This document shows positions 19,544-63,472 of a stretch of DNA of 64,000 nt, piece by piece. A program made the translations under genes and the position numbers. How positions within the stretch are numbered: position 1 is the first letter of the stretch; each line of letters starts with the position of its first letter. The DNA lies in contig JAABTG010000009.1 of NCBI GenBank assembly GCA_011389995.1, forward strand, positions 13,482 to 77,481. The letters run 5' to 3'. This DNA comes from Thiotrichales bacterium (GTDB lineage Bacteria; Pseudomonadota; Gammaproteobacteria; JAABTG01). A model generated the notes under the pieces. The model saw only the letters and a list, made by a program, of their open reading frames with translations, had not been told where the DNA came from and ran no database searches.

Positions 19544-19627
19544 GGTGCCGATGGCCGGAGTCGAACCGGCACGGCTTGCGCCACTGCCCCCTCAAGACAG
19601 CGTGTCTACCAATTCCACCACATCGGC
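19544..19627 (-). tRNA. tRNA-Leu (anticodon GAG)
   Basis: The reverse complement reads GCCGATGTGGTGGAATTGGTAGACACGCTGTCTTGAGGGGGCAGTGGCGCAAGCCGTGCCGGTTCGACTCCGGCCATCGGCACCA. It has an acceptor stem, a D-loop (GGTAGA), anticodon loop TTGAGGG, a long variable arm and a T-loop (GTTCGACTC), plus an encoded CCA. The position after secG is the classic context. Confidence 0.85.
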
Positions 19628-45479: not shown

Positions 45480-46865
45480 TCAGCGCCCCATCCCCGACAG
45501 CACAGCGAGCACGCCGGTGACGTTCAACATCACCAGCAGGATGGCCAGCGGCACCACGTAACGGGTGAGGAACCGCCACGCCTCGTAGACCGGGCCGGGG
45601 GCCAGGGCGAGTTCCTTCTCGCTCGCGGCACGGGCGAGCTTCCAGCCCGCGAACAGGGCGATGAGCAGCCCGCCCAGGGGCAGCATCACATTGGCCGTGG
45701 TGTAGTCCATGAGGTCGAAGAAGCCCTTGCCGAACAGCGTGTAATCCGACCACAGGTTGAGGGACAGCAGCGACGGTACCCCCAGCAGCCAGGCCAGGCC
45801 GCCGCCCGCCGCCGCGCCCTTGATGCGGTTGACACCGCGGTTCTCCACCAGCCAAGCCACGATGGGCTCCAGCAGCGAGATGGCCGAGGTCCAGGCGGCG
45901 AACAACAACAGCACGAAGAACAGGGTGCCGAAAAACGCGCCCCCGGGCATCTGGCCGAAGGCCACCGGCAGGGTCTTGAAGATGAGCCCCGGTCCCCCGG
46001 CCGGCTCCAGGCCCGCGGCGAAGACGATGGGAAAGATGGCCAGACCGGCCAGCAGGGCCACCAGCGTATCGACCAGGGCGATAATACCCACGGTGCGGGG
46101 TATGGAGGCCTTGGACGACAGATAGGAGCCGTAGATCATGATGGCCCCCATGCCGAGGCTGAGGCTGAAGAAGGCCTGGCCCGCCGCCTCGAGCACACCG
46201 GTTGGCGTCAGCTTGCTGAAATCGGGCGAGAACAGGTACTCCAGACCCCGGGCGAACTCGCCGTTGCCCATGGCATATCCCACCATGGCCACCAGCAACA
46301 CGAACAGCGCCGGCATGAGAAAGCGCACCGCCTGCTCCAGGCCGCTCTTGACGCCCCGCGCCACCACCACCGTGACCATGATCATGAACACGGTGTGCCA
46401 GGCCAGCAGACGTTCCGGGTCGCTCACCAGGGAATCGAAGGCCATGCTGATGGCCTCGGCATCCATGGCGGCAAACATGCCGGAGGCGGAGCGAAAGACG
46501 TAGGCCAGGGTCCAGCCCGCCACCACGGAGTAGAAGGACAGGATCATGAATCCGGCCAGGATCCCCAGCCACCCCAGGTACTCCCAGCGCGGGTTGTGCC
46601 CCTCGTCGCGGGCCAGGGCGCGCATGGTGTTGATGGGGCTGCGCCGGCCGCGCCGCCCCAGCATCACCTCCGCGATCATGATGGGCACACCGATGAGGGC
46701 AACGCATAGCAGGTAGACGATAACGAATGCACCGCCGCCGTTCTCCCCCGCGACGTAGGGAAAACGCCAGATATTCCCCAGGCCCACGGCCGAGCCGGTG
46801 GCCGCGAGGATGAAGACGAGGCGTGACGACCACTGACCGTGGATGGATGTTCTCTGCGACGACAT
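45480..46865 (-). CDS. Sodium-dependent transporter, NSS (SNF) family
   Basis: 461 aa; GSAVGLGNIWRFPY, the NSS signature in TM1. 11-12 TM helices. Confidence 0.85.
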   Translation of the reverse strand: MSSQRTSIHGQWSSRLVFILAATGSAVGLGNIWRFPYVAGENGGGAFVIVYLLCVALIGVPIMIAEVMLGRRGRRSPINTMRALARDEGHNPRWEYLGWLGILAGFMILSFYSVVAGWTLAYVFRSASGMFAAMDAEAISMAFDSLVSDPERLLAWHTVFMIMVTVVVARGVKSGLEQAVRFLMPALFVLLVAMVGYAMGNGEFARGLEYLFSPDFSKLTPTGVLEAAGQAFFSLSLGMGAIMIYGSYLSSKASIPRTVGIIALVDTLVALLAGLAIFPIVFAAGLEPAGGPGLIFKTLPVAFGQMPGGAFFGTLFFVLLLFAAWTSAISLLEPIVAWLVENRGVNRIKGAAAGGGLAWLLGVPSLLSLNLWSDYTLFGKGFFDLMDYTTANVMLPLGGLLIALFAGWKLARAASEKELALAPGPVYEAWRFLTRYVVPLAILLVMLNVTGVLAVLSGMGR

Positions 46866-47090
46866 ATTCGTTTCCGTTATTGATGTTTTGCCGCACCGGC
46901 CGTAAAAATGCCCGTTCAGTCCAGCGCGAGCCTGATGGGCCTTTGCCGTCTCGCGAGGGCGCAGTATAACCCAATGATTCTTAATGAGAACCGGCGCACG
47001 ACGGCACGCAATGATTTAGTCATTCAAAGGGATTACCATTGCATTCTTCTGTCCGCGGAACACCCACGAGAGACCCCGTCAGCAACCACC

Positions 47091-47642
47091 ATGGCTCCTA
47101 CGGCCCCCCTCCAGACGCCACGGGCCACCCCCCTGGGGCGCCGCAACGGCTTCACCCTCATCGAGATGATGGTGGTGCTCATCATCGTGGGCGTCATCGC
47201 CAGCCTCGCCATGGTGCGCCTGACCACCGACGATGATGCCGCCCAGGCCCGGCGCGAGGCCGAACGCCTCAGCGCCCTCCTTCACCTCGCCCGCGACGAG
47301 GCCATCGTGCGGGCCCGCTCCATGGGCCTGCGCCTGGCCCCCGACGGCTACCGCTTCGCCCTGTATGACGGCGGTCGCTGGCGCGACCTCGACGACGACG
47401 GGGTGTTTCGCGCCCGCCGGCTGCCCGATCACCTGCGCCTCGCCGTCCATGGCGTGAACCGGGGGACCGCCGATGGCGACCCCCGGGATGGCCGGGAACC
47501 GCCGCCCCAGGTGATCCTCACCCCCGGTGGCGAGGCCACCCCCTTCGAACTCTCCATCGCCGGGCTGGACGGCGGCGGCGCCCAGCGCATCCACGGCGGG
47601 GCCATGGGCCGCTTCACCATCGAGACGGGCGATGAGAGCTGA
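47091..47642 (+). CDS. gspH: Type II secretion minor pseudopilin GspH
   Basis: Prepilin motif GFTLIEMMVVLIIVGVIA. Start MAPTAPLQT within track ORF 46908..47642. Confidence 0.75.
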   Translation: MAPTAPLQTPRATPLGRRNGFTLIEMMVVLIIVGVIASLAMVRLTTDDDAAQARREAERLSALLHLARDEAIVRARSMGLRLAPDGYRFALYDGGRWRDLDDDGVFRARRLPDHLRLAVHGVNRGTADGDPRDGREPPPQVILTPGGEATPFELSIAGLDGGGAQRIHGGAMGRFTIETGDES

Positions 47643-48024
47643 CCACCGCAGAACAGGAGGCTTCACCCTGCTGGAGATCCTGGTGGCCCTCACCATCGTG
47701 GCCCTGGCCCTCGGCGCCGCCATCAGCGGCACGGGCGGCCACGTGGAGAGCACAGACCACCTGCGCAACAAGACCATCGCCCACTGGGTGGCCCTCAACC
47801 GCGTCACCGAACTCCAGGTGGCCGAGCCCTGGCCCGCCCTCGGCGCGAGTTCCGGCTCGGAGGAGATGACCCACCGTGAGTGGCGCTGGACCGCGGACGT
47901 GAAGCAGACCCCGGACGCCGGCGTACGACGCCTGGAGGTGGCGGTGACGCCGGCGGCCTCCCCCGACGCCGTGCTGGCCCGGGTCACCGCCTTCACCACC
48001 GCCCCTGCCGGGGCCACGCCATGA
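47632..48024 (+). CDS. gspI: Type II secretion minor pseudopilin GspI
   Basis: MRADHRRTGGFTLLEILVALTIVALALGAAI. Overlaps the gspH stop. Confidence 0.75.
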   Translation: MRADHRRTGGFTLLEILVALTIVALALGAAISGTGGHVESTDHLRNKTIAHWVALNRVTELQVAEPWPALGASSGSEEMTHREWRWTADVKQTPDAGVRRLEVAVTPAASPDAVLARVTAFTTAPAGATP

Positions 48025-48644
48025 CCTGCCCTGCCGCCAGCCGTCGGCGCCCCCGCGCCCAGGGCGGTTTCACCCTGCTGGAGCTCATCGTGGCCACGGG
48101 GATCTTCGCCCTGCTCTCCCTCATGGCCTTCGGCGGTCTGCGCAGCGTACTGGACACCGAGGCCGCCTCCCGCGACACCGGCACCCGGCTCGCCGATCTC
48201 CAGACCACCCTGTGGTTCATGGGCCGTGACATGAGTCAGATGGCCCCCCGGGACATCCGCGACGCCTTCGGCGATCCCCGGCCCGCCCTGGTGGGCACCT
48301 CCGGCACCCCGGGGGCCCTGGAGTTCACCCACGGCGGCTGGGACAATCCCCTGGGCCAGGCCCGCAGCAACCTGCGCCGGGTGGCCTACCGGGTGCGGGA
48401 CGGCGGCCTGGAACGGCTGACCTGGGCGACCCTCGACCGGGTCCAGGGCAGCGAGCCCGTTACCGAGACACTGCTGGAGGGGGTGGCGGACCTGGCGCTG
48501 CGCTATCTGGACGGGCAACGGGAGTGGGGCCCTGCCTGGCCGCCCGCCGGAGGGGCCGCCCATGCCCTGCCCGTGGCGGTGGAGGTGGTACTGGAGCTCG
48601 AGGACTGGGGCCCGGTGAGGCGCGTGTTCCGGGTGGCGGGCTGA
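48020..48644 (+). CDS. gspJ: Type II secretion minor pseudopilin GspJ
   Basis: MTCPAASRRRPRAQGGFTLLELIVATGIFALLS. Start at the ATG overlapping the gspI stop. Confidence 0.75.
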
Positions 48645-49618
48645 TGGCGGCCAGGCTCCCCCGCCGGCCAACGGTCGTGGTCCGGCCTGCGGCCGGCGTG
48701 GCCCTCATCACGGCCCTGCTGGTGGTGGCCGTGACCACGGTGGCCATGGTGGGCATGACCTCCCGGCTGATGGTGGAACTGCGCCGCACCGAGAACATCC
48801 TCCACGGCGAGCAGGCCGTGGCCCTGCTGTCGGGGGTGGAGGGATGGGCCCACGGGCAACTCGTCGCCGACCTCGAGGAGGGCGGGGCCGTCGACCATCC
48901 CGGCGAGAACTGGGCCCGTCCTCTGCCCCCCACGGAACTGGAGAACGGCTACGCCCAGGGTCGTATCGTGGATCTGCAGGGCCGCTTCAACATCAACACC
49001 CTGGTGGATGACGCCGCCCAGGTGAACGCCGTGGCCCGGCAGCGCTTCGAGCGCCTGCTGGCCTATCTGGACCTGCCGGCGCGCCTGGTCCCCGCCCTGC
49101 TGGACTGGCTGGACAAGGATCAGGCCATCCGCTTTCCGGGGGGGGCCGAGGACGATTACTACAGCCGCCTCACGCCCCCCTACCGCCCCGCCAACCGCCC
49201 GCTGCTGACGGTGTCGGAGTTGCGCCTGGTGGCGGGCTTCGAAGAGGCCATCTACCAGACCCTGCGGCCCCACGTGAGCGCCCTGCCCGGGGTCACCACC
49301 ATCAACGTCAACAGCGCCCCGGTGGCGGTGCTCATGGCCCTCGCCGACGGCCTCGCGGCCACCGACATGGAGGCCCTGGTGAAGGGCCGCCAGGAACAGC
49401 CCTTCGTGGACGTGGAGACCTTTCTGCGCCACCCCGCCCTGGCGGGCACCACGGTGGACGCCGCGGGCCTCGGCGTGACCAGTGACCACTTCGCCGTCCA
49501 CGGCACCGCCACCGTGGGCCGCGCCGAGGCCCGCCTCACCGGCTTTCTGCAGCGCCGGGGCGGGGCCGACCGGGGCGTGCTGATGCGCTACCGCCACTAC
49601 GGCAGCGGCGGGCCGTGA
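48644..49618 (+). CDS. gspK: Type II secretion minor pseudopilin GspK
   Basis: MAARLPRRPTVVVRPAAGVALITALLVVAV. GspK family, ~324 aa. Confidence 0.75.
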   Translation: MAARLPRRPTVVVRPAAGVALITALLVVAVTTVAMVGMTSRLMVELRRTENILHGEQAVALLSGVEGWAHGQLVADLEEGGAVDHPGENWARPLPPTELENGYAQGRIVDLQGRFNINTLVDDAAQVNAVARQRFERLLAYLDLPARLVPALLDWLDKDQAIRFPGGAEDDYYSRLTPPYRPANRPLLTVSELRLVAGFEEAIYQTLRPHVSALPGVTTINVNSAPVAVLMALADGLAATDMEALVKGRQEQPFVDVETFLRHPALAGTTVDAAGLGVTSDHFAVHGTATVGRAEARLTGFLQRRGGADRGVLMRYRHYGSGGP

Positions 49619-50832
49619 GCGACCTCGCCTTCATCCGTCTCGCCGCCCGCGGCGATGATCCCGTGACCTGGTGGCCCGCCGCCGACACCGGGGCCGTGGG
49701 CAGCGGCACCCTCCAGGAGGCCGCCGCCGCCGTCGGACAGCGCGAGGTGGTGGTGCTGGTCCCCACCGAGCAGGTGCTGCTCGCCACCGCCCGGGTACCG
49801 GGCCGCCATCGCGCCCAGCGCGCCCGCGCCGTGCCCTACAGCATGGAGGACGACATGGCCCGCGACGTGGAGGACAGCCACTTCGCCCTGCCGGCCGGCG
49901 GCGGCCCCAGCCCCCTGCCCGTCTGCGTGGCCGACCGCGAGCGCATGGACGACTGGACGTCGGCCCTGCAGGAGGCCGGCCTGCGCCCCGCCGCCCTGGT
50001 GCCCGACGCCCTCGTACTGCCCCTCGTCGAAGATTCGTGGACGGTGGCCCGCGTCAACGGCCACGCCCTGGTGCGCACCGCCGTCAACGCCGGTTTCATG
50101 GCCGACGAGGACAACCTGCCCACCCTCCTCGCCCTGGCCCTGGAGGCGCACGACGGCCGGCCCCCGGCACGTCTCATGGTACTGGCGGACGACGAGCCCG
50201 CCGCGGCCGGGGCCCTCGCCGGGGCCGCGGCGGGCCTGGAGATCACGGTGGACGAGCCGCCGCGCCCCCTGCTGGCGCGGGCGGCGGCGGGCTACGACCG
50301 GCGCACCACCCTCAACCTGTTGCAGGGTGAATACGCCCCGGGCGGCGAAGACGGCGAACGCTGGCGGCCATGGCTGGTGGTGGCCGCCCTCGCCGTGCTG
50401 TGGCTCGCCATGGAAGGGGCCATCCAGGTGGCGGACTTCTCCCGCCTCAAGCAGCAGGAGGCCCGCCTCGATGCCGGCATCGAGGCCACCTTCCGGGACG
50501 CCCTGCCCGGCGTGACGCGCATGGTCAATCCGCGGGTCCAGATGGAGCGCCGACTGGCGTTCCTGGAAGGCCGGGAGAGCGGCGCCACGGGCCTGCTGCC
50601 TTTGCTCCACGCGGCCGGTGGCGTGCTCCGGGACGAGGCCGATATCAAGCTGACGGCCCTCAGTTACCGCGGTGACGCCCTCTACCTCGATCTGCAGTTG
50701 CCCAACCTTCAACGCCTGGACCGGTTGAAATCATCCCTCGCCGAGGACGGCCGCGCCGTGGAAATCCAGAACGCCTCGTCCGAGGGCGGCCGCGTGCGCG
50801 CCCGCATCCTGGTGCGGGAGGGCGCCCCATGA
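49615..50832 (+). CDS. gspL: Type II secretion inner-membrane protein GspL
   Basis: 405 aa; cytoplasmic actin-like domain, one TM helix and a periplasmic domain. Position between gspK and gspM. Confidence 0.75.
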   Translation: MSDLAFIRLAARGDDPVTWWPAADTGAVGSGTLQEAAAAVGQREVVVLVPTEQVLLATARVPGRHRAQRARAVPYSMEDDMARDVEDSHFALPAGGGPSPLPVCVADRERMDDWTSALQEAGLRPAALVPDALVLPLVEDSWTVARVNGHALVRTAVNAGFMADEDNLPTLLALALEAHDGRPPARLMVLADDEPAAAGALAGAAAGLEITVDEPPRPLLARAAAGYDRRTTLNLLQGEYAPGGEDGERWRPWLVVAALAVLWLAMEGAIQVADFSRLKQQEARLDAGIEATFRDALPGVTRMVNPRVQMERRLAFLEGRESGATGLLPLLHAAGGVLRDEADIKLTALSYRGDALYLDLQLPNLQRLDRLKSSLAEDGRAVEIQNASSEGGRVRARILVREGAP

Positions 50833-51347
50833 GGGCCTGGTTCGACAGCCTCGCGCCCCGGGAGCGCCGCGTGGTCGTGGCCGGCGGCACCGTGTTGGTG
50901 GTGGTACTGCTGTGGGCCCTGGTGTGGGCGCCCTTCCGGGACCGCTACCTGGCCCTGCAGGACGCGGTGGCCGGCAAGCAGGAACTCGCGACCTGGATGA
51001 GCCGCACGGCGGCCCGCATCCAGGCCCTGGAGGGCGACCGCGCCCCGGCGCCCGCGGGGGACGGCAACCGCTCCCTCCTCGCCACCGTGGACCAGACCTC
51101 CAGGCAGTCCGGCCTCGGCCCCCACATCAAGCGCATCGAGCCCGACGGCCAGGGCGCGGTGCGGCTGTGGCTGGAGGAGGCCCCCTTCGATCCCATGGTG
51201 CGCTGGCTGGTGGCCCTCGCCGAGGGCCACGGCATCCACGCCCGTCAGGCGGGGGTGGATGCCCGGGACGCCGCAGGCCGGGTGAACGCCCGCCTGACCC
51301 TGGAGCGGGATGCCGCCGCCGGCAGCGACGGAGGCCTCACGCCATGA
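50829..51347 (+). CDS. gspM: Type II secretion protein GspM
   Basis: 172 aa; N-terminal TM (VVVAGGTVLVVVLLWALVW), bitopic like GspM. Confidence 0.7.
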   Translation: MRAWFDSLAPRERRVVVAGGTVLVVVLLWALVWAPFRDRYLALQDAVAGKQELATWMSRTAARIQALEGDRAPAPAGDGNRSLLATVDQTSRQSGLGPHIKRIEPDGQGAVRLWLEEAPFDPMVRWLVALAEGHGIHARQAGVDARDAAGRVNARLTLERDAAAGSDGGLTP

Positions 51348-51910
51348 AGGCCGGCGGCGCACGCCTGGCGGTGGTGGCGACGAGCCTGCTGTTGCTGGTG
51401 GTCATGGGCTGGCGCGGCTGGAGCGGCTACCGGCAGCTCTCCCAGCCACCGCCGGCCCTGCCCGCAACCACCCTGGCGGTGGACCCCGCCGCCCCGGGCC
51501 GCCCCGAACGGCGGCTGGCGGACCTGGCCCACTGGCACCTGTTCGGTAACGCCGCGGGACCCGCCGCGCCGGCGCCACAACCCCGGCCGGTGGATGCCCC
51601 GGCCACCCGCCTGGACCTCAAACTGGTGGGGGTACTGGCCTCCGACGACCGCGGCGACGCGCGGGCCATCATCGGCGCCCCCGGGGTACCGGATCGCCAC
51701 TACCGCCTCGGTGACACCGTCCCCGCCGGCGCCGAACTGGCCGCCATCCGCCGGGACCATGTGCTGCTCAAGCGCAACGGCCGCTTCGAGACCCTGGCCC
51801 TGGCCCGTGAAGACAATGCCGCCACCGACACCAACGTCTCCCGGGCCCCGGCCCTGGCGAGGCCGGCCCCCGGCCGCTCCGCCCGCGCCCCTGTAGTTCC
51901 CGATGACTGA
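51344..51910 (+). CDS. gspC: Type II secretion protein GspC (XpsN-like)
   Basis: Start MKAGGARLAVVATSLLLLVV (TM helix). The C-terminal secretin-interacting HR-like region is present (LKLVGVLASDDRGDARAIIGAPGVPDRHYRLGDTVPAGAELAAIRRDHVLLKRNGRFETL). It lies immediately upstream of gspD, as Xanthomonas XpsN does. Confidence 0.65.
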   Translation: MKAGGARLAVVATSLLLLVVMGWRGWSGYRQLSQPPPALPATTLAVDPAAPGRPERRLADLAHWHLFGNAAGPAAPAPQPRPVDAPATRLDLKLVGVLASDDRGDARAIIGAPGVPDRHYRLGDTVPAGAELAAIRRDHVLLKRNGRFETLALAREDNAATDTNVSRAPALARPAPGRSARAPVVPDD

Positions 51911-53915
51911 TGCCACCCTGCCCGAAGGCCCAACCACCATGCGTAATATGAAGCCCGCCCTCCCCGCCCTGTTCCTGCTCCTGCTGCTGTACGCCGGCAC
52001 GGCGTTGCTGGCCCCCGCGGCGCGGGCGGAACCCGTCACCCTCAACCTGGAGGAGGCGGAGATCGGCACCCTCATCGCCACGGTATCCGAGGTCACGGGA
52101 CGCAACTTCGTCGTCGACCCGCGGGTGAAGGGCAAGGTCAGCGTGGTCTCCTCCATGGCCATGGAGAAGGAGGAGCTCTACCAGGTATTCCTGTCCATCC
52201 TCGAGGTCCACGGCTTCGCCGCCGTACCCTCGGGCAACGTCGTCAAGATCGTGCCGGACGCCAACGCCAAGCACATCGACACCCCGCTGGCCAGCGATAG
52301 GGCACCCGGGGTCGGCGACGAGATCGTGACCCGGGTGGTGCAGGTGGAGAACGTCTCCGCCTCCCAGCTGGTACCCATCCTGCGGCCCCTGGTGCCCCAG
52401 CAGGGCCACCTCGCCGCCTATCCGGCCACCAACGTCCTGGTGGTATCGGACCGCGCCGGCAACATCGAGCGGCTGGTGAAGATCATCACCCGCATCGATC
52501 AGAAGACCGACGCCGAGATCGAGGTCATCAACCTGCAGCATGCGACGGCCGCCGAGGTGGTGCGGGTGATCACCGCCCTGCAGCGGCCCGCCCAGGGCCA
52601 GGCCGCGGTGGAAGGCGGCCAGGGCCTGCCCAGCCTGGTGGCCGACGAGCGCACCAACAGCATCCTCATGAGCGGCGACCAGCTGGCCCGCCTGCGCGTC
52701 CGCGCCCTCATCACCCACCTGGACACCCCCCTGGAGTCCACCGGCAACACCCACGTGGTCTATCTGCGCTATGCCCGGGCGGCCGAGCTCGCCGACGTCC
52801 TCACGGACATCAGCAGCGACATCCAGCAGGATGAAGGGGCCGGCAACGCCGCCGGCGGCGCCAACAACCAGCGCGGCAACGACATAGGTATCCGTGCCGA
52901 CGAGGCCTCCAACGCCCTGGTGATCACGGCTCCGCCCGAGGCCTACGCCTCCCTGCGCCAGGTCATCTCCCAGCTGGATATCCGCCGCGCCCAGGTACTG
53001 GTGGAGGCCATCATCGCCGAGGTGCGAAGCGAGAATGCGGCCGAAATGGGGGTGCAGCTTCGCGACCTGGTGGGCGGCAGCGACGGCAGTTTCGTCATCA
53101 GCAATCCCCAGGGCCCCAACAGCCCCTTCGTCGGTGCCGATGGCGCCTCCACCCTCTCCGGCCTGACCCTGGGCCTGGTACGCAACGGCGACATCCGCGG
53201 CCTGTTGCGGGCCCTCGCCACCTCATCGGACACCAATCTCATCGCCACTCCCACCCTCCTCACCCTGGACAACGAGGAGGCCGCCATCGTGGTGGGCCAG
53301 AACGTGCCCTTCCTCACCGGCAGCTTCACCAACGACTCCACCACACCGGACAATCCCTTCCAGACCATCGAGCGCCGGGACGTGGGGCTGGAACTCACCG
53401 TCACCCCCCAGATCAACGAAGGCGACGCCATGTCCCTGGTGATCTCCCAGGAGGTCTCCAGCATCGACGACAGCGCCCAGGCGGTGGACCTCATCACCAC
53501 CACCCGCTCCATCAACACCACCGTACTGGTGGACGACGGCGAGATAGTGGTACTGGGAGGACTCATCCGCGACGACTTTCAGACCACGGAACAGAAGGTG
53601 CCTGTGCTCGGGGACCTGCCGGTGCTGGGCAACCTGTTTCGCAGCACCAGCAGCGACAGCACCAAGAACAACCTGATGGTGTTCATCAAGCCCACCATCG
53701 TCCGTAACCGCGCGGATATCGCCCACATCACCAGCAGCAAGTACAACTTCCTGCGGGCCAAGCAGCTGGAGCAGCCGAAATCCCGGGTGCTGTTCGAGCC
53801 GGCCATGCAGGTGCCATTGCTGGCCCCCTTCGAAGAGGCACCGAAGCCCCCTGGACGACAGGAGAACCCCCCTGCCCCCGAGGAAGAGCCCAGGGCCCTC
53901 TTCGAGTACGACTGA
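51903..53915 (+). CDS. gspD: Type II secretion secretin GspD
   Basis: 670 aa; signal peptide, N0-N3 domains, and a secretin C-domain (VVLGGLIRDDFQTTEQKVPVLGDLPVLGNLFRS). Confidence 0.9.
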   Translation: MTDATLPEGPTTMRNMKPALPALFLLLLLYAGTALLAPAARAEPVTLNLEEAEIGTLIATVSEVTGRNFVVDPRVKGKVSVVSSMAMEKEELYQVFLSILEVHGFAAVPSGNVVKIVPDANAKHIDTPLASDRAPGVGDEIVTRVVQVENVSASQLVPILRPLVPQQGHLAAYPATNVLVVSDRAGNIERLVKIITRIDQKTDAEIEVINLQHATAAEVVRVITALQRPAQGQAAVEGGQGLPSLVADERTNSILMSGDQLARLRVRALITHLDTPLESTGNTHVVYLRYARAAELADVLTDISSDIQQDEGAGNAAGGANNQRGNDIGIRADEASNALVITAPPEAYASLRQVISQLDIRRAQVLVEAIIAEVRSENAAEMGVQLRDLVGGSDGSFVISNPQGPNSPFVGADGASTLSGLTLGLVRNGDIRGLLRALATSSDTNLIATPTLLTLDNEEAAIVVGQNVPFLTGSFTNDSTTPDNPFQTIERRDVGLELTVTPQINEGDAMSLVISQEVSSIDDSAQAVDLITTTRSINTTVLVDDGEIVVLGGLIRDDFQTTEQKVPVLGDLPVLGNLFRSTSSDSTKNNLMVFIKPTIVRNRADIAHITSSKYNFLRAKQLEQPKSRVLFEPAMQVPLLAPFEEAPKPPGRQENPPAPEEEPRALFEYD

Positions 53916-54004
53916 GGCCGCGCCGCTGCGCCACCCTCGGGGCGGCCCGTCAAGCCGCCGCCCGACGGGCCGCTATGTAGGGTACCCGCCCCACCGGTAC
54001 CCTC

Positions 54005-56353
54005 ATGGCCGCCAAGCCCTCCACCCGCCCCCGCCCCCATCCCACCCGTATCGGTCGCTACGTGGTGGGAGGGATCCTGGGCCGCGGTGCCCAGGGGGTG
54101 GTCTACCTGGCCACGGATCCGGAACTCGACCGGGAGGTGGCCATCAAGACCCTGACCCGCCGCACCCGGGATGCCGCCACCCTCCTCAAGGAGGCCCAGC
54201 TGGTGGGACGCATGAAACACCCCGGCATCGTGCCGGTATACGACGCCGGGCGCCTGGGGGACGTGCCCTACGTGGTCTACGAGCGGGTCAGGGGGCGCAC
54301 CCTGGACCAGGTGCTCGCGGAGGAGCCCCGCCTGCCCCTGCCCCGCATCGTGGCCTGGATGACGCAGATCCTGGACGCCCTGGAATACGCCCATGGCCAG
54401 CAGGTGGTGCATCGCGACATCAAACCCGCCAACGTGGTGATTCAGGACGACGACTCCCCGCGGGTGCTGGATTTCGGCATCGCGCTCCCCAGCGGTACCG
54501 AGACCCGGGTCATGGAGGGCCTGTGGGGCACCTTCCAGTACCTGGCACCGGAGATGGTGGACAAGGGGCGGGCCACGGCGGCCACGGACATCTTCTCCCT
54601 GGGGCTCATCCTGTTCGAAATGCTCACCGGCCGGCGCGCCATCGCCGAAGACGACCCCATGGCGGCCATGTACCACATCGCCCATCGGCCGGTACCCCCG
54701 CCGTCATCCATCCGTCCCGAGGTGGCCCCCGGCCTCGACGGCATCGTGTCCCGGGCCCTGCAGAAGCGGCCCGACGCCCGTTACTCCGATGCCGGCGAGA
54801 TGCGGGACGCCCTGGCGGTATTCGCCGAACCCGAGGTGCACGAGCATGAGCCACGCCGCCAGTCGACCCTGAATTTCCTGTTGCGGCGCATGCGCCAGAA
54901 GCCGGATTTTCCCGCCATCGGGCGCCACATCTCGGAGATCAGCCAGAAGACCGCCGCCATCGATCGCGCATCGGTGGACGAGCTCACCAACCTGATCCTG
55001 GAAGACTATGCCCTCACCACCAAGCTGCTGCGGCTGGTGAACTCCTCCTACTACGGCCAGTACGGTGGTTCCATCAGCACCGTATCCCGGGCGGTGGTGA
55101 TCCTCGGCTTCAACCAGGTGCGCATGGCGGCCCTGAGCCTGCTGCTGTTCGAGCACATCGCCGACAAGCCCAACGTGCCGGTGCTCAAGGAGGTGGGCGG
55201 ACGGGCCTTCTTCAGCGGCCTCATCAGCCGCCGCCTGGCCGCCGACATGGCCCACGCCGACGCCGAACAGGGCTTCGTGAGCGCCATGTTCCACACCCTG
55301 GGACGCTATCTGTCGGCCTATTATTTTCCCGACGAGGACGAGGAGATCGGCCGTCTCATGGACAACCAGGGCCTGTCCGAGGAGGCCGCCGCCGTGGCAG
55401 TGCTCGGCCTCACCTTCGAGGCCCTGGGCATCGGCGTGGGCAGGGAGTGGCATCTGCCCTCCGAACTCCTGGAAGGCATGCGCACCCTGGGTGTCGACGA
55501 GATGCCGCGGCGTCCCGCCAACCCCCGGCAGGCCATGCGCCTGCTGTCCTGTTTCGCCAACGAGGTGGCCATGGCCATGGGCGGCGACGACCCCGGCGCA
55601 TGCCACGAACGCCTGTCACAGCTGGAGCAGCGTTACGGTCAGGCGGTGCGGCTGGCGCCGGACCGCATGCAACAGGTGATCGCCGAGGGCGTGGAGGATA
55701 TCCAGCGCTTCTCCCGCGCCGCCGCCATCGACCTCGGCGACAATGCCATCCTGCGCAACGCCCGCCGCCTGGGGCGGCAGGAGGAGGACTCGGAGGACGA
55801 GGACCCTCGGGAAGGTGCCGCCGTGGAGGACAGCGGCCAAAACGACGCACCATCGACCCAGACCACGCTGCTGAGCGGCATTCAGGACATCAGCCAGGCC
55901 CTGGTGGACAACTACGGCATCAACGACATTCTCATCATGATCCTCGAGACCCTGTTCCGGGGTCTCGGCTTCACGCGGGTGGTGCTGTTCATCAACAACT
56001 CCCGGCAGGCCGAGATGAACGCCCGCTTCGGCCTCGGTCGCGACATCGACAAGCTGCTGCCCCGCCTCAAGTTCTCCACCACCAGGGCCCAGGACATATT
56101 CGGCCGGGCGGTGCGCGAACACGAGGACATCATCCAGGTCCAGGGGCCCCGGGGGGGAGACATACCGGCCTGGCACCGCGACCTGCTCTCTCCCAGCACC
56201 TTCGCCCTCTACCCGGTAATCATCGGCAACAAGTGCCTCGGCCTCATCTACGCCGATCGCGACGAACGCAACCGCCCCATCACCGAAGCCGAGCGCAATT
56301 ACCTCAACACCCTGCGCAACCAGGCGGCCCTGGCGATTCGGCAAAGATCATAG
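54005..56353 (+). CDS. Hanks-type Ser/Thr protein kinase fused to HDOD and C-terminal GAF domains
   Basis: N-terminus has GxGxxG (ILGRGAQGVVY), catalytic HRDIKPANV, DFGIA and APE. The middle has the HDOD signature (LRLVNSSYYGQYGGSISTVSRAVVILGFNQVR). The C-terminal ~180 aa are GAF-like. Confidence 0.8.
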   Translation: MAAKPSTRPRPHPTRIGRYVVGGILGRGAQGVVYLATDPELDREVAIKTLTRRTRDAATLLKEAQLVGRMKHPGIVPVYDAGRLGDVPYVVYERVRGRTLDQVLAEEPRLPLPRIVAWMTQILDALEYAHGQQVVHRDIKPANVVIQDDDSPRVLDFGIALPSGTETRVMEGLWGTFQYLAPEMVDKGRATAATDIFSLGLILFEMLTGRRAIAEDDPMAAMYHIAHRPVPPPSSIRPEVAPGLDGIVSRALQKRPDARYSDAGEMRDALAVFAEPEVHEHEPRRQSTLNFLLRRMRQKPDFPAIGRHISEISQKTAAIDRASVDELTNLILEDYALTTKLLRLVNSSYYGQYGGSISTVSRAVVILGFNQVRMAALSLLLFEHIADKPNVPVLKEVGGRAFFSGLISRRLAADMAHADAEQGFVSAMFHTLGRYLSAYYFPDEDEEIGRLMDNQGLSEEAAAVAVLGLTFEALGIGVGREWHLPSELLEGMRTLGVDEMPRRPANPRQAMRLLSCFANEVAMAMGGDDPGACHERLSQLEQRYGQAVRLAPDRMQQVIAEGVEDIQRFSRAAAIDLGDNAILRNARRLGRQEEDSEDEDPREGAAVEDSGQNDAPSTQTTLLSGIQDISQALVDNYGINDILIMILETLFRGLGFTRVVLFINNSRQAEMNARFGLGRDIDKLLPRLKFSTTRAQDIFGRAVREHEDIIQVQGPRGGDIPAWHRDLLSPSTFALYPVIIGNKCLGLIYADRDERNRPITEAERNYLNTLRNQAALAIRQRS

Positions 56354-56385
56354 TTCGAGCCGAAGATGGGCCAGTATTGTTCAAT

Positions 56386-56449
56386 GCCGAGATGGGCCAT
56401 CCATGGCCCACTTCGGCGCGGCAGGGGAAAACGCGGTTTTCCCCTGCCT
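56386..56449 (+). repeat. 64-bp direct repeat, copy A, with a perfect 12-bp-stem hairpin (GCAGGGGAAAAC-GCG-GTTTTCCCCTGC)
   Basis: gccgagatgggccatccatggcccacttcggcgcggcaggggaaaacgcggttttcccctgcct. Repeated 160 bp downstream with 1 mismatch. Confidence 0.85.
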
Positions 56450-56545
56450 ACATGGGTCGCGCCGGGCGCGCCCCATGGCGAGGCTCCTGCCTCGCGGGGA
56501 CTTCCGGCTTCGCAGCTCTATGCCGGGATGGGGCGGATCGTTCAA

Positions 56546-56630
56546 GCCGGGATGGGCCATCCATGGCCCACTTCGGCGCGGCAGGGGAAAACGCGGTTTT
56601 CCCCTGCCTCGCGGGGGCTTCCGGCCAAAG
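56546..56630 (+). repeat. 64-bp direct repeat, copy B, plus the shared tail ctcgcgggg(a/g)cttccgg
   Basis: Identical to copy A apart from g/a at position 5. Copy A carries an extra 38-bp GC-palindromic insert before the shared tail. Confidence 0.85.
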
Positions 56631-56704
56631 CTCATGCGGCTAGGGCGCGTAGCCGAGCGGGGGTCGGGAGTCGGGGGTGGACCAGCACTAAGGGCATCAC
56701 AATT

Positions 56705-56751
56705 AAAAATTCAAAATTCAAAATTCAAAATTGAAACCGCATAGCGGTTTC
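56705..56751. repeat. Heptanucleotide tandem array (AAAATTC)x~4 followed by an 8-bp-stem hairpin (gaaaccgc-ata-gcggtttc)
   Basis: Direct read: aaaaattcaaaattcaaaattcaaaattgaaaccgcatagcggtttc. AT-rich island ~260 bp upstream of fdhD. Confidence 0.8.
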
Positions 56752-57006
56752 CTGCCGTGGTGAGGACCAAGGATGTGGAAAATTGTGCCAAGAGTGCTCA
56801 CATTCCTAGCCATATTGTCCTATCCATGAGGAATGCAGGGACAAAATGCGGCAATCTCCGGTGGTTTTGCCGACGACGACGGGGCTTTGCGCCCCGTAAC
56901 CGCGGTCCCCGGGGCGCTGCCGGCCCGATGGGAATGGTTCTTGCTTGGACTTTGGGAGGCCGCCGCGGCAGGCGGCCATCGGCTTACCCAGGAGTACCCC
57001 AGCCCC

Positions 57007-57910
57007 CATGAAAGACACCCCTCCCCGTTACGTGCCGGAAATGAGCGACGCCGGCCTGCGCCCCTCCCACGAGGTGGTGGCCATCGACGAATACGGTACG
57101 TCCCGGGCCGGCTTCGTGGCCGGTGAGCGTGCCCTCGCCCTGGTGCTGGACGACCGCGAGGTGGTCACCCTCATGACCCTCGGCAGCCACCCGGAGCTCC
57201 TGACCCTGGGTTACCTCCTCAACCAGCGCCTGGTGCCCTGTCTCGAATCCGTCGATGCCATCACCGTCGACTGGGACAAGGCCATCGTGAAGGTGGACAC
57301 CTTCGAACGCATCAGCGACCTCGAGGAGAAGATGAAGCACCGCACCGTCACCAGCGGTTGCGGCCAGGGCACGGTGTTCGGACGCATGGCGGAACAGATA
57401 GAGAACATCCGCCTGACCCCGCGCACCGTCGCCCAGTCGGAGATCTACGCCCTCCTGGAACACCTGACGGATTACAACGAGGTCTACAAGCAGGCCGGCG
57501 CGGTGCATGGCTGCGCGCTGTGTGAGGTCCATCCCCGGGAGGGCCCGCGCATCCACCTGTTCGTGGAGGACGTGGGGCGCCACAACGCAGCAGACGCCAT
57601 CAGCGGCTACATGTGGCTGAACGGCGTGGACGGCGGCGACAAGTGCTTCTATACCACCGGGCGTCTCACCTCCGAGATGGTCATCAAGGTGGCCCAGATG
57701 GGCATCTCGGTGCTGCTGTCCCGCTCCGGCGTCACCTTCAAGGGCCTCGAACTCGCCCGCACCATCGGCGTCACCATGATCGCCCGCGCCAAGGGACGGC
57801 ATTTTCTCGTCTACAACGGCGCCGAGCACATCGTCTTCGACGCCATCCCGCCGGCGCGTCCGGCGGGCGCCGGCGGTACGCGGCGCCGGAGCACGGCCGA
57901 CGTGGGCTGA
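57007..57910 (+). CDS. fdhD: Formate dehydrogenase accessory sulfurtransferase FdhD
   Basis: Start MKDTPPRYVPEM. Contains SGCGQGTVFG and HNAADAISGYMWLNG motifs of FdhD. The track ORF is extended to 56945. Confidence 0.85.
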
Positions 57911-57915
57911 ACACC

Positions 57916-58833
57916 ATGAGCGCCGTCATGACCACCGACACGCCCGCCGTCTTCATGAACGTCAAGCAGGTGGCCAGTTATCTCCACCTCAACGAAAAGA
58001 AGATCTACGCCATGGCCAGCGAGGGGCGGATCCCGGCCACCAAGATCACCGGCAAATGGATGTTCCCCCGGGAACTCATCGACCGCTGGATACTGGACTC
58101 GGCCCACGGCGGCCTGCTGGTGGACCGCCTGGCCATCGCCGGCAGCGATGACCCCCTCCTCTACCGGGTGGTGACGGGCTTCACCCGCGACCTCAAGGCC
58201 CACGCCCAGATCAGCTACACCCCCACGGGCACGCGCCTCGGCCTGGACCTGCTGCAGTCCCAGCGCATCGACGTGGGCGGGCTGCACTGGGGGCCCGGCA
58301 CCGAGAGCCATACCCGCCATCCCGCCCTGCTGCGCCAGTATTCCCAGCACCGCAACTGGGTGCTGATCCGCGCCTTCTCCCGGGAGCAGGGGCTGATGGC
58401 CCGGGCCTCGGTGCTCAGCCGCACCAGGGACCCCGCGGAACTCGCCGCATCCCGCTTTCGCTGGGTGCAGCGCCAGTCCGGTTCCGGCGCCCAGCGTTTC
58501 CTCATGGAGATGTACAACCAGCCCGGGGCCTGGCCCCACAGCCTCAACGTCACCACCACCGCCCTGTCGGAGCGCGAGGCGGCCACCGCCATCGTCATGG
58601 ATCAGGCGGACGTCGCCCCCGGCTCGCGGGCCGCCGCCAACGAGGCCGGCCTCGGCTTCGTCTCCTTCGGCTGGGAATCCTTCGACTTCGCCCTGCCCCG
58701 CAACATCTGGTTCCGGCGCCTGTTCCAGGAGCTGCTGTCGCGTCTCAACTGCGGCGAGGGCCGCCGCCTGGCGGACACCCTCGGGGGCTACGAGATGAAG
58801 GGCACGGGGGAACTGGTGTGGGCCCACGAATAG
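57916..58833 (+). CDS. Excisionase/MerR-type HTH DNA-binding protein fused to a periplasmic-binding-protein-like (molybdate/tungstate-type) domain
   Basis: N-terminus VKQVASYLHLNEKKIYAMASEGRIPATKITGKWMF (HTH_17-like). The ~250-aa C-terminal domain has PBP-fold-like alternating pattern. Located between fdhD and mobAB. Confidence 0.55.
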   Translation: MSAVMTTDTPAVFMNVKQVASYLHLNEKKIYAMASEGRIPATKITGKWMFPRELIDRWILDSAHGGLLVDRLAIAGSDDPLLYRVVTGFTRDLKAHAQISYTPTGTRLGLDLLQSQRIDVGGLHWGPGTESHTRHPALLRQYSQHRNWVLIRAFSREQGLMARASVLSRTRDPAELAASRFRWVQRQSGSGAQRFLMEMYNQPGAWPHSLNVTTTALSEREAATAIVMDQADVAPGSRAAANEAGLGFVSFGWESFDFALPRNIWFRRLFQELLSRLNCGEGRRLADTLGGYEMKGTGELVWAHE

Positions 58834-58962
58834 AACCGCCGCGCCAGCCACCCCAGCCATGCCGGGTTTCGCGTCCCTCAACCCGGCCTGCGGAGCTTTC
58901 AACGCGTCCTGCGGCCCAGGGATGGGCCGCCATTCTCGGACCCGCCAGGGTTCGAGAATGAC

Positions 58963-58993
58963 GCCCAGGGAAAATCGCATTTTCCCTGGGCGT
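58963..58993. promoter_or_regulatory. Perfect palindrome CGCCCAGGGAAAAT-CGC-ATTTTCCCTGGGCG, related to the 56386/56546 hairpin
   Basis: Shares the core GGGAAAAnCGCnTTTTCCC with the hairpin in the tandem repeat upstream of fdhD. Confidence 0.5.
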
Positions 58994-59034
58994 GCGCTGA
59001 GAAAGCCAGGATGGCTTTATTCAGCGCTTTTATT
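58994..59034 (+). terminator. Rho-independent terminator (hairpin plus TTTTATT) shared by convergent fdhD-HTH and sigma54-activator transcripts
   Basis: gcgctgagaaagccaggatggctttattcagcgc followed by ttttatt. The T-run overlaps the stop codon of the minus-strand regulator gene. Confidence 0.65.
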
Positions 59035-60493
59035 ATGAACTCCCCCAGGCCTGACACTTGCGCTCCAGGGTCTTGCGGGATATCCCGAGCCGCCGTGCCG
59101 CCGCGGACTTGTTGCCGTCCTCCATGGCCAGCACCCTGAGGATGTGGCGGCGCTCCACGCTCTCGAGGGACAGGTCGTCCTCCTGGCCCGCCACCGCCTC
59201 CTCCGGGGTGCCCCGATATCCGGACAGGCACTGGGACGGCCGGCTGTTGAGCAACAGGGCGCGTTCGATGACGTTGCGCAATTCCCGGATGTTGCCCGGC
59301 CACTCGTAACGGGCCAGCCGATCCAGCTCGGCGTCGCCGATGGCCGGGGCCTCCACCCCCAGTTCGGTGGCCAACAGGCCGCAGAAGTAATGCACCAGTT
59401 CGGGCAGGTCCGCCGCCCGCTCCCGCAGGGCCGGCATACGAATGCTGAGGACGTTGAGGCGGTAGTACAGGTCCTCGCGGAACCTGCCCTCGGCCACCTC
59501 CTGTTGGAGTTGACGGTTGGTGGCGGCCACCAGACGCACGTCCACGGTGACCTGGGAATTGCCTCCCATGGGCCGCACCGCCCGTTCCTCCATCACCCGC
59601 AGCAGATGGGTCTGCATGGTCAGCGGCATCTCGCCGATCTCATCCAGGAACAGGGTGCCGCCGTCGGCGTAGGAGAACAGGCCTTCCCGCGCCTGACTCG
59701 CCCCCGTGAAGGCCCCTTTGACGTGGCCGAACAACTCGCTTTCCAGCAACTCGCCGTTCATGGAACCGCAGTTCACCGGCACGAAGGCCCCGTTTCGGCC
59801 GCTCCAACGGTGCAGGGCCCGGGCCGCCAACTCCTTTCCGGTGCCGGACTCGCCCTCGATGAGCACCGTGGAGGGCCTGGGGGCCACCCGCTTGATGACG
59901 TCACATATGCCCTTGATGGCCTCGCAGGAACCCACCATGCCACTGCTGTCATAGAGGTGATCCACCTGGCGATGGAGGGCATAGTTCTCCTGCTCCATGC
60001 GCCGACGCTCCAGGGTGCGCGTCAGGGCCTCTTCCATCTGCTCCATGGTGAAGGGCTTGAGGATCAGGTCCGAGCCCCCGGAGCGCAGGGCCTCGATGGC
60101 GGTCTTCACGTCGGCGTCGGCGGCCATGAAGATCACCGGCGTGCCGCAATCGCGGGCCCGCAGATCAAAGACCCAGTCCACCCCGGAACGGTCCGGCAGA
60201 CCCACCGCGACGATGATGAGATCGAAATGGCAGCGGGCCAGCAGTTCGTCGGCGGTGCTGCTGTTCTCCACTACTTCCACGAGGCTGAAGCGGGGGAGGA
60301 GCCCTTTGCGCAGCAGGTTGATGGTGGCCGTGTCGCCGTCCACCACGAGGACCGAGCTGAGACGTGCGTTGGGGGTCGTGGAGGCCTGGGGGCTCGCCGC
60401 GTCAGTCACCGCGGCCGCCTCGACCCGCCGGGTATGAACCCTGGAATCGCGTCGAACATGCTCTCTCCTTGGCTGGGGACAGAAGAAACCCAA
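59033..60493 (-). CDS. Sigma54-dependent two-component response regulator (NtrC family: receiver + AAA+ sigma54-activation + Fis HTH)
   Basis: Receiver domain (VLVVDGD ... [14 protein letters not shown]). AAA+ domain with Walker A GESGTGKE, the GAFTGA motif ([11 protein letters not shown]) and ELFGH. C-terminal HTH ([20 protein letters not shown]). The N-terminus is uncertain: the track start is a TTG and there is no early ATG. Confidence 0.85.
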
Positions 60494-60537
60494 AGGGGCC
60501 GGGATGCCCAGGGTTACTCCTCAGGACAGGTGAAAAT

Positions 60538-60552
60538 AGGACATTCTGTCCT
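60538..60552. promoter_or_regulatory. Palindromic putative enhancer-binding site AGGACA-TTC-TGTCCT
   Basis: A perfect 6-bp inverted repeat with a 3-bp spacer, plus an adjacent half-site (caggacagg). It lies ~175 bp upstream of the sigma54 promoter, in the divergent regulator/mobA intergenic region. Confidence 0.4.
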
Positions 60553-60718
60553 GCGCATTCAACCCGAATTGGTCAATTTGCCCCACATCGTCGGCGGCCT
60601 GACGGATCCGGTTCCCTCGCTCGGGTGGAGCACCGGGGTCCATGCGGGACACCGGCGCCGGACGATCCACCGTCCCGGCATCCGCCCCACGCCCGTGGCC
60701 GCGCCAAAGGAGCGCCCA

Positions 60719-60735
60719 TGGCACCGGTATTGCTT
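60719..60735 (+). promoter_or_regulatory. Sigma54 (-24/-12) promoter for mobA-mobB-moeA
   Basis: TGGCACcggtaTTGCTt matches TGGCAC-N5-TTGCW exactly. It lies 180 bp upstream of the mobA ATG on the coding strand. Confidence 0.65.
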
Positions 60736-60915
60736 ATGCAACAATCTCTTTAGAACGTGCTCCCATCCCGTGACGCCTGGAACCATGCCCCTTACCGCCC
60801 TGTCCCTCCACCTCCGCCCCCGCCTCACGGCCCCGCCATGGCCTCCCGCGGCCACCGGCGCCGGGGGTTTGAACCCCGTCACCGTGTCTCCCGCTGGCCA
60901 CAAGGTGTCCGGGGC

Positions 60916-62098: not shown

Positions 62099-62102
62099 AG
62101 CC

Positions 62103-63380: not shown

Positions 63381-63472
63381 CGCCCCCGTCCCTTTCGCCA
63401 CGGCCCCCCGTGCCGTAGGCAAGGCGCGGGCGCGGTGTGTATAGTAGTTCGTTTTTCCCCACCCACAGTGCC

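Follow-up and report, generated by a model that had tools for sequence, protein, structure and literature searches.

What does a soluble protein kinase that carries an HDOD and a GAF domain do, and does it serve the secretion genes beside which it is encoded? The question is raised by a gene of a Thiotrichales bacterium (Gammaproteobacteria; GenBank assembly GCA_011389995.1, contig JAABTG010000009.1, positions 13,482 to 77,481 of the forward strand), which lies in the stretch of 64,000 nucleotides analysed here, hereafter called the window, and coordinates without a locus name count from the first letter of that window. A first-pass annotation had described the product as a rare kinase-HDOD-GAF fusion that follows the type II secretion system (T2SS) gene gspD and may be co-regulated with secretion. 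Our results do not support the rarity or the link to secretion. We propose that the best explanation of the locus as a whole is a cytoplasmic Hanks-type kinase joined to a self-contained HDOD-GAF regulatory module and transcribed from its own promoter of the sigma-28 (FliA) type, and we give this reading a probability of roughly 0.55. About the anatomy of the protein, the size of its family and the lack of a link to the T2SS we are highly confident.

The protein of 782 amino acids (aa) with kinase, HDOD and GAF domains and without a transmembrane segment, as well as the orientation shared with gspD and the 89-nt gap between the two genes (53916-54004), were all confirmed (Table 1). No alternative in-frame start lies further 5', because the open reading frame (ORF) already opens at the first start codon past the upstream stop. 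The product is 100% identical to P0001 and 91% identical to MDZ7753711.1, which has the source label 'HDOD domain-containing protein'. Pfam detected all three domains, i.e., Pkinase at residues 19-261 (E 7e-46), HDOD at residues 310-493 (E 4e-33) and GAF at residues 640-778 (28.7 bits, cut-off 22.4), and a domain check of the InterPro/CDD type, as the first-pass annotation had suggested, thus places both HDOD and GAF above the Pfam cut-offs. Searches with NCBIfam models returned generic kinase similarity only, with scores far under every equivalog cut-off. The full-length AlphaFold2 (AF2) model, built on an alignment of 58 family sequences, has a mean predicted local distance difference test (pLDDT) score of 86, with disordered segments at residues 276-283 and 596-615. 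The only markedly hydrophobic stretch of the protein, residues 461-479, where the Kyte-Doolittle value over 19 residues peaks at 1.82, is a buried core helix of the HDOD domain (pLDDT >90) and not a membrane helix, so that the protein is soluble.

The architecture, previously taken to be rare, is common, though no characterised member was found. A search with the whole protein retrieved 7588 proteins at E<=1e-10. The best 120 of these 7588 all combine Pkinase and HDOD, with a Pfam GAF domain where detectable, and a GAF is present in 120 of 120 when the GAF region of the window protein serves as the query. They are mostly ~750-890 aa long (one has 1135 aa and one is a partial sequence) and, apart from two that cover 78% and 85% of the query, align over ~96-100% of it. 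The search of species-representative genomes with a 10-sequence full-length alignment yielded 253 stretches that code for a relative; of the best 80, nearly all match over the full length. The hosts belong to the Gammaproteobacteria (Ectothiorhodospiraceae, Thiotrichaceae, Thioalkalivibrio, Legionellales), the Betaproteobacteria (Gallionellaceae, Nitrosomonadales, Azoarcus olearius, Dechloromonas denitrificans, Azospira) and the Desulfobacterota (Desulfatibacillum, Desulfatiglans, Syntrophaceae), and the databases name the proteins 'HDOD domain-containing protein', 'serine/threonine protein kinase' or 'Protein kinase:GAF'. Our literature search yielded no paper linking HDOD to a Ser/Thr kinase, and the main text of a recent preprint presenting an atlas of bacterial Ser/Thr kinases mentions neither HDOD nor GAF. 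We conclude that the family is large and widespread, catalogued in databases yet experimentally unstudied, and that the window protein is an ordinary member of it, a Hanks kinase with cytoplasmic sensor domains.

The HDOD-GAF part is also encountered on its own, as a protein of ~520 aa. The C-terminal 498 residues, compared with 1.84 billion cluster representatives (50%-identity clusters), matched 809 of them at E<=1e-30 and 3506 at E<=1e-10, and a profile of the module matched 3957 proteins at E<=1e-30 in a 90%-clustered collection. Among the best 150 module representatives the kinase domain is present in 91 and absent in 59. Most of the kinase-less forms are 500-570 aa long, with a short variable N-terminus ahead of the LLRRMR..DFPA segment, and 53 of the 59 start with Met; a few module members have in addition a zinc ribbon at the N-terminus or a longer linker. 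One kinase-less HDOD-GAF protein, P0121 (locus L089, 2178-3788), is 46% identical to the window module and is encoded at the same position as the window kinase, after Fur, BamE, RnfH and RatA; as just 134 nt precede it, a truncated gene call can be dismissed. Another, P0154 (locus L088, 6001-7566), is convergent with an HD-GYP-type gene (DUF3391 + HD_5). Since the HDOD-GAF module also stands alone, the kinase can be regarded as an optional output on that module. A rough neighbour-joining tree of the module with 147 tips does not separate proteins that have the kinase domain from those that lack it and requires at least 35 changes between the two states; as this tree lacks support and a part of the short forms could be truncated calls, it weakly suggests repeated gain or loss of the kinase domain.

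The kinase domain scores 157 bits with PF00069 (cut-off 31.7) and has the complete Hanks catalytic set, namely G26xG28xxG31, VAIK48, E63, H136-R-D138-I-K140-xx-N143, D156-F-G158, A-P182-E183, D195 and R259. Residues K48, E63, H136, D138, N143, D156-F-G158, P182-E183, D195 and R259 are invariant or near-invariant in the 58 relatives. The region is modelled by AF2 with pLDDT mostly >90 (residues 11-270), and Foldseek aligns the domain with PknB of Mycobacterium tuberculosis at a template modelling (TM) score of 0.85 and 35% identity. Judging from its motifs, the domain should be an active RD kinase. Candidate phosphosites in the activation loop are T165, T167 and T176, the last of which is kept in 50 of the 58 members. 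At K140 of the HRDxKxxN motif (54422-54424) the window protein has Lys, but 40 of 58 family members have N, S or T, which is odd for Ser/Thr kinases.

The HDOD part is an extended module of ~300 residues that opens with a conserved LLRRMRxKxDFPA segment, scores 115 bits with PF08668 (cut-off 22.9) and is modelled by AF2 with helices over residues 282-594. By sequence it matches six solved HDOD proteins, the best of which are SadB (9QZK, E 1e-11) and then the Geobacter protein 3HC1 (E 5e-7). The latter holds two Fe ions via five His and one Asp (PMC12075610). The LWAH, HD and TSH positions of 3HC1 correspond to R400, H430-T431 and F471 in the window protein, and across the family to R/T/G/S, to His in 53 of 58 members followed by T/N/R/K, and to Y/F. 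The catalytic H...HD...H...D set is therefore absent, H430 alone being kept of the four 3HC1 His/Asp positions in the alignment, and the description of this domain as a degenerate HD fold proved correct. Residues H430, H384, E383, E421 and E444 are conserved in the family. SadB likewise keeps one His; it does not bind cyclic di-GMP (c-di-GMP) and acts as an adaptor for the proteolysis of AmrZ (PMC12075610). With a pocket degenerate as in SadB, catalysis is unlikely, and by analogy the HDOD part is probably a non-catalytic interaction or regulatory domain.

A separate AF2 model of residues 605-782 has a pLDDT of 92, and the PDB structures that Foldseek places nearest to it are without exception GAF domains, led by PtsP (3ci6 and 3trc, TM score 0.80) and including PDE10A, Lcd1, Nlh2 and phytochrome-type proteins. 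The top 50 matches are almost all GAF or GAF-fold proteins (e.g., free methionine-R-sulfoxide reductase). The residues conserved in the family, ARFGLG (673-678), D697, P721-x-W723, Y749-A-D751 and Q773, are common to the kinase-bearing and the kinase-less forms, and the conserved polar residues R674, D697, W723, Y749 and D751 suggest a putative ligand pocket. The ligand cannot be deduced from these comparisons, because the Foldseek scores do not separate GAF subtypes (E 1e-9 to 1e-8, 12-18% identity).

The evidence for a promoter of its own comes from the gap between gspD and the kinase gene. The gap contains a sigma-28-type box that reads TCAAG CCGCCGCCCGACGG GCCGCTA T (53950-53975/6) and ends ~28-29 nt ahead of the ATG; the pattern TCAAG-N13-15-GCCGNTA has a single match in the window, both strands counted, where 0.03 would be expected. 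The published sigma-28 consensus is TAAAGTTT-N11-GCCGATAA, and in chromatin immunoprecipitation sequencing (ChIP-seq) of Escherichia coli the sites of flgKL and fliL read TCAAG-N14-GCCGATAA and that of cvrA carries GCCGCTAA (PMC4183435). An alignment of the upstream regions of loci in which the kinase gene is linked to a gene for an SNF-family Na+ symporter shows a conserved (C/T)TCA(A/G)G-N14-GCCG(C/T)TA, located in most of them ~30-75 nt 5' of the start of the protein match (around residue 13). The last ~55 nt before the kinase ATG, box included, are conserved in a relative whose kinase is 72% identical and which has no T2SS genes at this locus.

A scan of the 400 nt upstream of the kinase gene in 83 loci with the pattern T[CA]A[AG]G-N13-15-G[CT]CG[ACT]TA gave a perfect box in 28 loci and an 11/12 match in 13 more, against no perfect match and 2-4 matches at 11/12 in equal-length controls (inside the gene or reverse complement). 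Only 16 other perfect matches occur in 1.43 Mb of locus sequence on both strands. Relatives have the box at the same position irrespective of which gene precedes it. It reads TCAAG-N15-GCCGATA in Desulfatibacillum and in the HTS/EamA clade, and TAAAGwTTT-...-GCCGATC/GTCGATA/GACGATA in other Desulfobacterota. Kinase-less genes have it as well, with a perfect TCAAG-N14-GCCGCTA box 27 nt upstream of P0121 and TAAAG-N15-GCCGAAA upstream of P0154. Based on this sequence pattern, we consider the odds to be somewhat in favour of the box being a functional sigma-28-type promoter of the kinase gene.

Two of the 16 other perfect matches, boxes that read TAAAG-N15-GTCGATA, stand 44-47 nt upstream of small PilZ-domain genes found ~7 kb from the kinase gene in two loci (L002, 17320-17346; L003, 15559-15585), and genes encoding REC and REC-guanylate-cyclase proteins adjoin these PilZ genes. 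The E. coli gene ycgR likewise encodes a PilZ protein. It is found in the list of FliA targets of E. coli (PMC4183435), and by this analogy a box ahead of PilZ genes fits a flagellar regulon.

Several observations weigh against the proposed explanation. The -35 element and the spacing of the window box match the FliA form, and its -10 element GCCGCTAT agrees with GCCGATAA at 6 of 8 positions; in the clade of the window, however, the -10 element is GCCG(C/T)TA and not GCCGATA, and the missing A falls in the CGA core, the most important part of the -10 element for E. coli sigma-28. The cvrA site with GCCGCTAA was weak in the E. coli ChIP-seq data (PMC4183435). About half of the loci have no box, nor does any of the Betaproteobacteria checked (Gallionellaceae, Nitrosomonadales, Azoarcus olearius, Dechloromonas denitrificans). 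Flagellar or chemotaxis genes do not adjoin the kinase gene in any locus, and no flagellar genes occur within the 64-kb window. A terminator scan of 53600-57100 detected no canonical terminator in the gspD-kinase gap, and co-transcription with the T2SS genes by read-through from gspD is possible in this organism. The predicted TM score (pTM) of the full-length AF2 model is 0.57, so that the packing of the domains cannot be read reliably from it. Besides, no member of the family has been studied, and we infer activity, ligand and substrates alike.

Further features of the gap and of the box-less loci were recorded. A generic sigma-70 scan of 53600-57100 gave no promoter, and Rfam, run over the whole window at the gathering threshold, returned only a tRNA (19546-19627) and no riboswitch or leader near the kinase gene. 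A hairpin that overlaps the box (Table 1) was considered as a terminator, leader or conserved RNA and rejected, as its stem is lost in A+T-rich relatives, in which the promoter half-sites are kept. In the box-less loci the neighbours encode a thioredoxin, an EttA-like ABC-F protein, a lipase-like protein or a LysR regulator. Two box-less family members are those of Azoarcus olearius (L090, AM406670.1) and Dechloromonas denitrificans (L091, CP178449.1); the gene of Dechloromonas shares 26 nt with the DUF3293 gene before it and is probably in an operon with rmuC. The lack of a box in these two species and the gene overlap in Dechloromonas indicate that regulation differs between clades.

Two of the four rival explanations that we weighed start from the neighbouring genes. 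The kinase might be co-transcribed with gspH-D, gated by a small ligand through its GAF domain, and regulate the assembly or activity of the T2SS, as its position 89 nt behind gspD, with no intrinsic terminator between them, would allow; the arrangement is also common to the 91% relative (L001, GCA_034522055.1), which has the same gene order as the window. Comparison with 87 related loci, with flanks of up to 10 kb on either side, does not support such co-regulation. Searched by tblastn with the GspD/H/J/K/L/M/C proteins of the window, these loci have T2SS genes only in L001, i.e., in 1 of 87, and the 72% relative (L007) has the order HrcA-NADK-RecN-Fur-BamE-RnfH-RatA-SNF, kinase, FdhD without gsp genes and with an SNF-kinase gap of ~160 nt, a gap length which, being found in 29 loci, shows the T2SS block to be derived. 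Both edges of the old SNF-kinase intergenic region are retained in the window, namely a AGTATAACCCAA box by SNF and the conserved last ~55 nt before the kinase ATG with the promoter-like box. Given the 72% relative and the retained edges, the gsp block is a lineage-specific insertion; gspE, F, G and O occur nowhere in the 64-kb window, and with only gspH-(I)-J-K-L-M-C/N-D in what relatives have as a ~160-nt gap, it looks like an inserted partial cluster. Since the block was inserted between SNF and kinase, its adjacency gives no comparative support for a functional link, and control of secretion by the kinase is improbable. The SNF symporter, on the other hand, is an ancestral neighbour; in 29-31 of 87 loci its gene lies upstream in divergent orientation (median 158 nt). 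It could be the partner of the kinase, the GAF domain sensing an imported solute (e.g., an amino acid) or a metabolite made from it and the kinase adjusting transport or metabolism. The pair persists in the lineage of the window despite a switch of the downstream gene from SmpB, found in 24 loci, to FdhD, and the GAF domains of PtsP (EI-Ntr), which sense glutamine and 2-oxoglutarate, are among the nearest GAF structures, though Foldseek does not separate PtsP from cyclic-nucleotide or bilin GAFs. The pair belongs, however, to an extended run of syntenic housekeeping genes (RecN-Fur-BamE-RnfH-RatA-SNF, kinase, SmpB), so that the adjacency may be merely inherited, and the stand-alone orthologue P0121 sits at the same locus without an SNF gene. 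Other clades have different neighbours: HTS and EamA genes; a CHASE2-kinase/PP2C/FHA group in Endothiovibrio; a Pkinase-cNMP gene in Desulfatibacillum; a dCache-GGDEF gene in Azoarcus; or a thioredoxin or EttA-like gene. A partnership with the symporter is thus unlikely.

The other two rivals start from the domains themselves. Were the HDOD part an active metal-dependent phosphohydrolase of c-di-GMP, pGpG or another nucleotide, the protein would be a bifunctional kinase/hydrolase in second-messenger turnover. Membership of the HD superfamily, the proposal of a 2010 survey that HDOD is a dinucleotide phosphohydrolase (PMC2952852), the family-wide conservation of H430, H384, E383, E421 and E444, and GGDEF or HD-GYP genes near some members agree with this. 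The single His kept family-wide at the four aligned positions of 3HC1 and the equally degenerate SadB, an adaptor, argue against it, and the papers found describe no HDOD with demonstrated catalytic activity; we regard such an activity as very unlikely. A single-gene anti-phage defence kinase of the PD-T4-6 or Stk2 type was also considered, as the PADLOC models of PD-T4-6 match with E values down to 5e-80 and the NCBIfam models of the MADS6 and PglW kinases match too. All these matches are, however, confined to the generic kinase domain (residues ~14-298), the NCBIfam scores are far under the curated cut-offs (e.g., 164 vs 460), the gene is surrounded by a housekeeping backbone (nuo, ftsH, carAB, dnaKJ, recN, fur, bamE) and not by a defence island, and its position is kept across dozens of species. 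The defence reading, extremely improbable, was therefore rejected. None of the four has more support than the cytoplasmic kinase with an HDOD-GAF module and its own promoter.

Under the favoured explanation, the kinase would be the output, and the HDOD-GAF module would set its activity or its choice of targets. HDOD would offer a non-catalytic protein-interaction surface, as in SadB, and GAF would act as a ligand-binding and/or dimerising element; by pairing two kinase domains it could bring about autophosphorylation of the activation loop, as in PknB-like kinases. A ligand-gated kinase mediated by GAF, as the first-pass annotation had suggested, is plausible. Transcribed from its own sigma-28 (FliA)-type promoter, the gene would, in the lineage of the window, be expressed together with the late flagellar and chemotaxis genes, and the protein would act on motility or on the motile-to-sessile switch, not on secretion. 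This role in the control of motility or lifestyle is a tentative part of the proposal, to which we give distinctly lower odds than to the promoter. In a wider and still more speculative extension, the sigma-28 regulon of many Gammaproteobacteria and Desulfobacterota may include the HDOD-GAF module, with or without the kinase, as a member that has so far escaped notice, and the kinase-fused form would add a branch of Ser/Thr phosphorylation to the control of motility or of the motile-to-sessile transition.

Table 1. Features of the kinase locus, with positions in the window and the basis of each assignment
Feature	Position	Strand	Basis
Kinase-HDOD-GAF gene	54005..56353	+	Complete ORF, ATG start, 782 aa; kinase, HDOD, acidic linker, GAF
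Hanks-type Ser/Thr kinase domain, residues 19-261	54059..54787	+	Pfam; motifs in 58 members; Foldseek to PknB
All-helical extended HDOD module, residues ~292-595 (Pfam core 310-493)	54878..55789	+	Pfam; PDB sequence matches; AF2
Acidic disordered linker, residues 596-615, EDSEDEDPREGAAVEDSGQN	55790..55849	+	AF2 pLDDT <50; sequence
GAF domain, residues 618-781	55856..56347	+	Pfam PF01590; AF2; Foldseek; conserved columns
Sigma-28 (FliA)-type promoter-like box, TCAAG-N14-GCCGCTAT	53950..53976	+	Sole window match; conserved position; published FliA form
G+C-rich hairpin, 10-bp stem, no T-run	53942..53973	+	Fold of whole gap -54 kcal/mol, z -2.5; overlaps box
gspD secretin (N0, Secretin_N, Secretin domains)	51903..53915	+	Pfam
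T2SS block gspH-(I)-J-K-L-M-C/N-D	46908..53915	+	Pfam; sits between SNF and kinase genes
SNF-family Na+ symporter	45480..46865	-	Pfam SNF; ancestral divergent neighbour of kinase gene

The window is core chromosome. Its genes follow the order nuo genes, tRNA, glmM, ftsH, carAB, dapB, dnaJ, dnaK, hrcA, NAD kinase, recN, fur, bamE, ratA, the SNF symporter (minus strand), the gsp block, the kinase, fdhD, an HTH_17/PBP-like gene, a sigma-54 response regulator and moeA. The last part is a molybdenum-cofactor cluster (56945-63946; 12929-19205 in L001) with fdhD, a regulator of HTH_17 and PBP-like (molybdate-binding) type, a divergent sigma-54 response regulator, mobA, mobB and moeA. Near the symporter, the AGTATAACCCAA box lies at ~46960-46975, ~100 nt from the SNF start codon, and is kept in L001 and in L007 (~7895-7910); it may be a -10 element for SNF (TATACT, minus strand) or for the plus-strand genes. 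The spacer between the kinase gene and fdhD (56354-57008) contains two copies of a 64-nt palindrome-rich repeat (56386-56449 and 56546-56609), an (AAAATTC)n run (56697-56738) and the palindrome GAAACCGC-TA-GCGGTTTC (56733-56751), and its fold as RNA is much more stable than that of shuffled sequence (z -6.0). The core of the 64-nt repeat was found in none of 89 related loci, the 91% relative included, and may be an element of the repetitive extragenic palindromic (REP) or miniature inverted-repeat transposable element (MITE) kind. Two candidate partners of the kinase were discarded. An ORF of 122 aa on the plus strand (56366-56734), 13 nt past the kinase stop, was rejected as a gene because it has no Pfam domain, overlies the palindromic repeats and is neither called nor conserved in the 91% relative, and a PP2C phosphatase/FHA protein adjoins the kinase in one locus only (Endothiovibrio) and is not a general companion.

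The account of an odd fusion tied to secretion thus fails, since the fusion is common and the adjacency to the T2SS is a recent insertion. It gives way to a set of soluble Hanks kinases that have an HDOD-GAF tail, number several thousand and include no studied member; in this set the regulatory module also occurs alone, and a flagellar-type sigma-28 box precedes the gene in roughly half of the loci examined, the window included. HDOD recurs in motility screens without a mechanism, and a kinase-bearing HDOD family predicted from sequence to be under FliA control would be a tractable entry to this problem. If the prediction is true, HDOD would have a concrete job, in that it would recruit or gate a kinase at the flagellar or chemotaxis apparatus. 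Culturable hosts exist both with the box (Desulfatibacillum) and without it (Azoarcus, Dechloromonas).

Known systems resemble this protein part by part. The kinase domain resembles the PknB-type Hanks kinases (PknB of M. tuberculosis, Stk1/PknB of Staphylococcus aureus), with 32-36% identity and TM scores of 0.80-0.87 to structures of the PknB catalytic domain and a match of 261 bits to the NCBIfam model PknB_PASTA_kin that is confined to the kinase part. As this score is below the equivalog cut-off of 450, the window protein is not a PknB orthologue; it differs from PknB in lacking the transmembrane helix and the extracellular PASTA repeats, its regulatory part being a cytoplasmic HDOD-GAF. 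The GAF domain shares its fold (TM score 0.66-0.80) and its role as a regulatory domain adjoining a catalytic output with those of PtsP/EI-Ntr (3ci6/3trc), PDE10A GAF-B (2zmf), the cAMP-binding GAF of Lcd1 (5w10) and NifA-type proteins. Identity to these enzymes is 12-18%, and the GAF is C-terminal to the output domain here and N-terminal there. The NK...Y...DE string of the window protein (residues 744-754) is not kept in the family consensus.

For the HDOD part, SadB of Pseudomonas aeruginosa is the best match of solved structure, over ~260 aligned residues, and both are extended helical HDOD modules with one pocket His. SadB is a non-catalytic adaptor tied to motility and biofilm; it has an N-terminal YbaK-like domain, lacks kinase and GAF, and its partners are AmrZ and the protease of AmrZ. 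The protein 3HC1 of Geobacter sulfurreducens belongs to the same domain family and aligns with module residues 19-203, but it has a di-iron site, of whose aligned positions the window protein and its family retain just H430. The promoter-like box of the window resembles FliA class 3/4 promoters in its TCAAG -35 element, the 14-nt spacing, the GCCGnTA form of the -10 element and a position conserved across orthologues; it differs in the -10 element GCCGCTAT, where C replaces the conserved A, and in that the gene downstream is neither a flagellar structural nor a chemotaxis gene. Effects on flagellar motility have been reported for the HDOD proteins PSPTO_4229, PFL_0554, PFL_5871, GsmR, Cj0248 and SadB. 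The first five, for which deletion or overexpression gives swimming phenotypes, are small proteins or response-regulator fusions without kinase or GAF, and they are likened to the window protein by domain; their swimming phenotypes fit the putative sigma-28-type promoter of the window gene.

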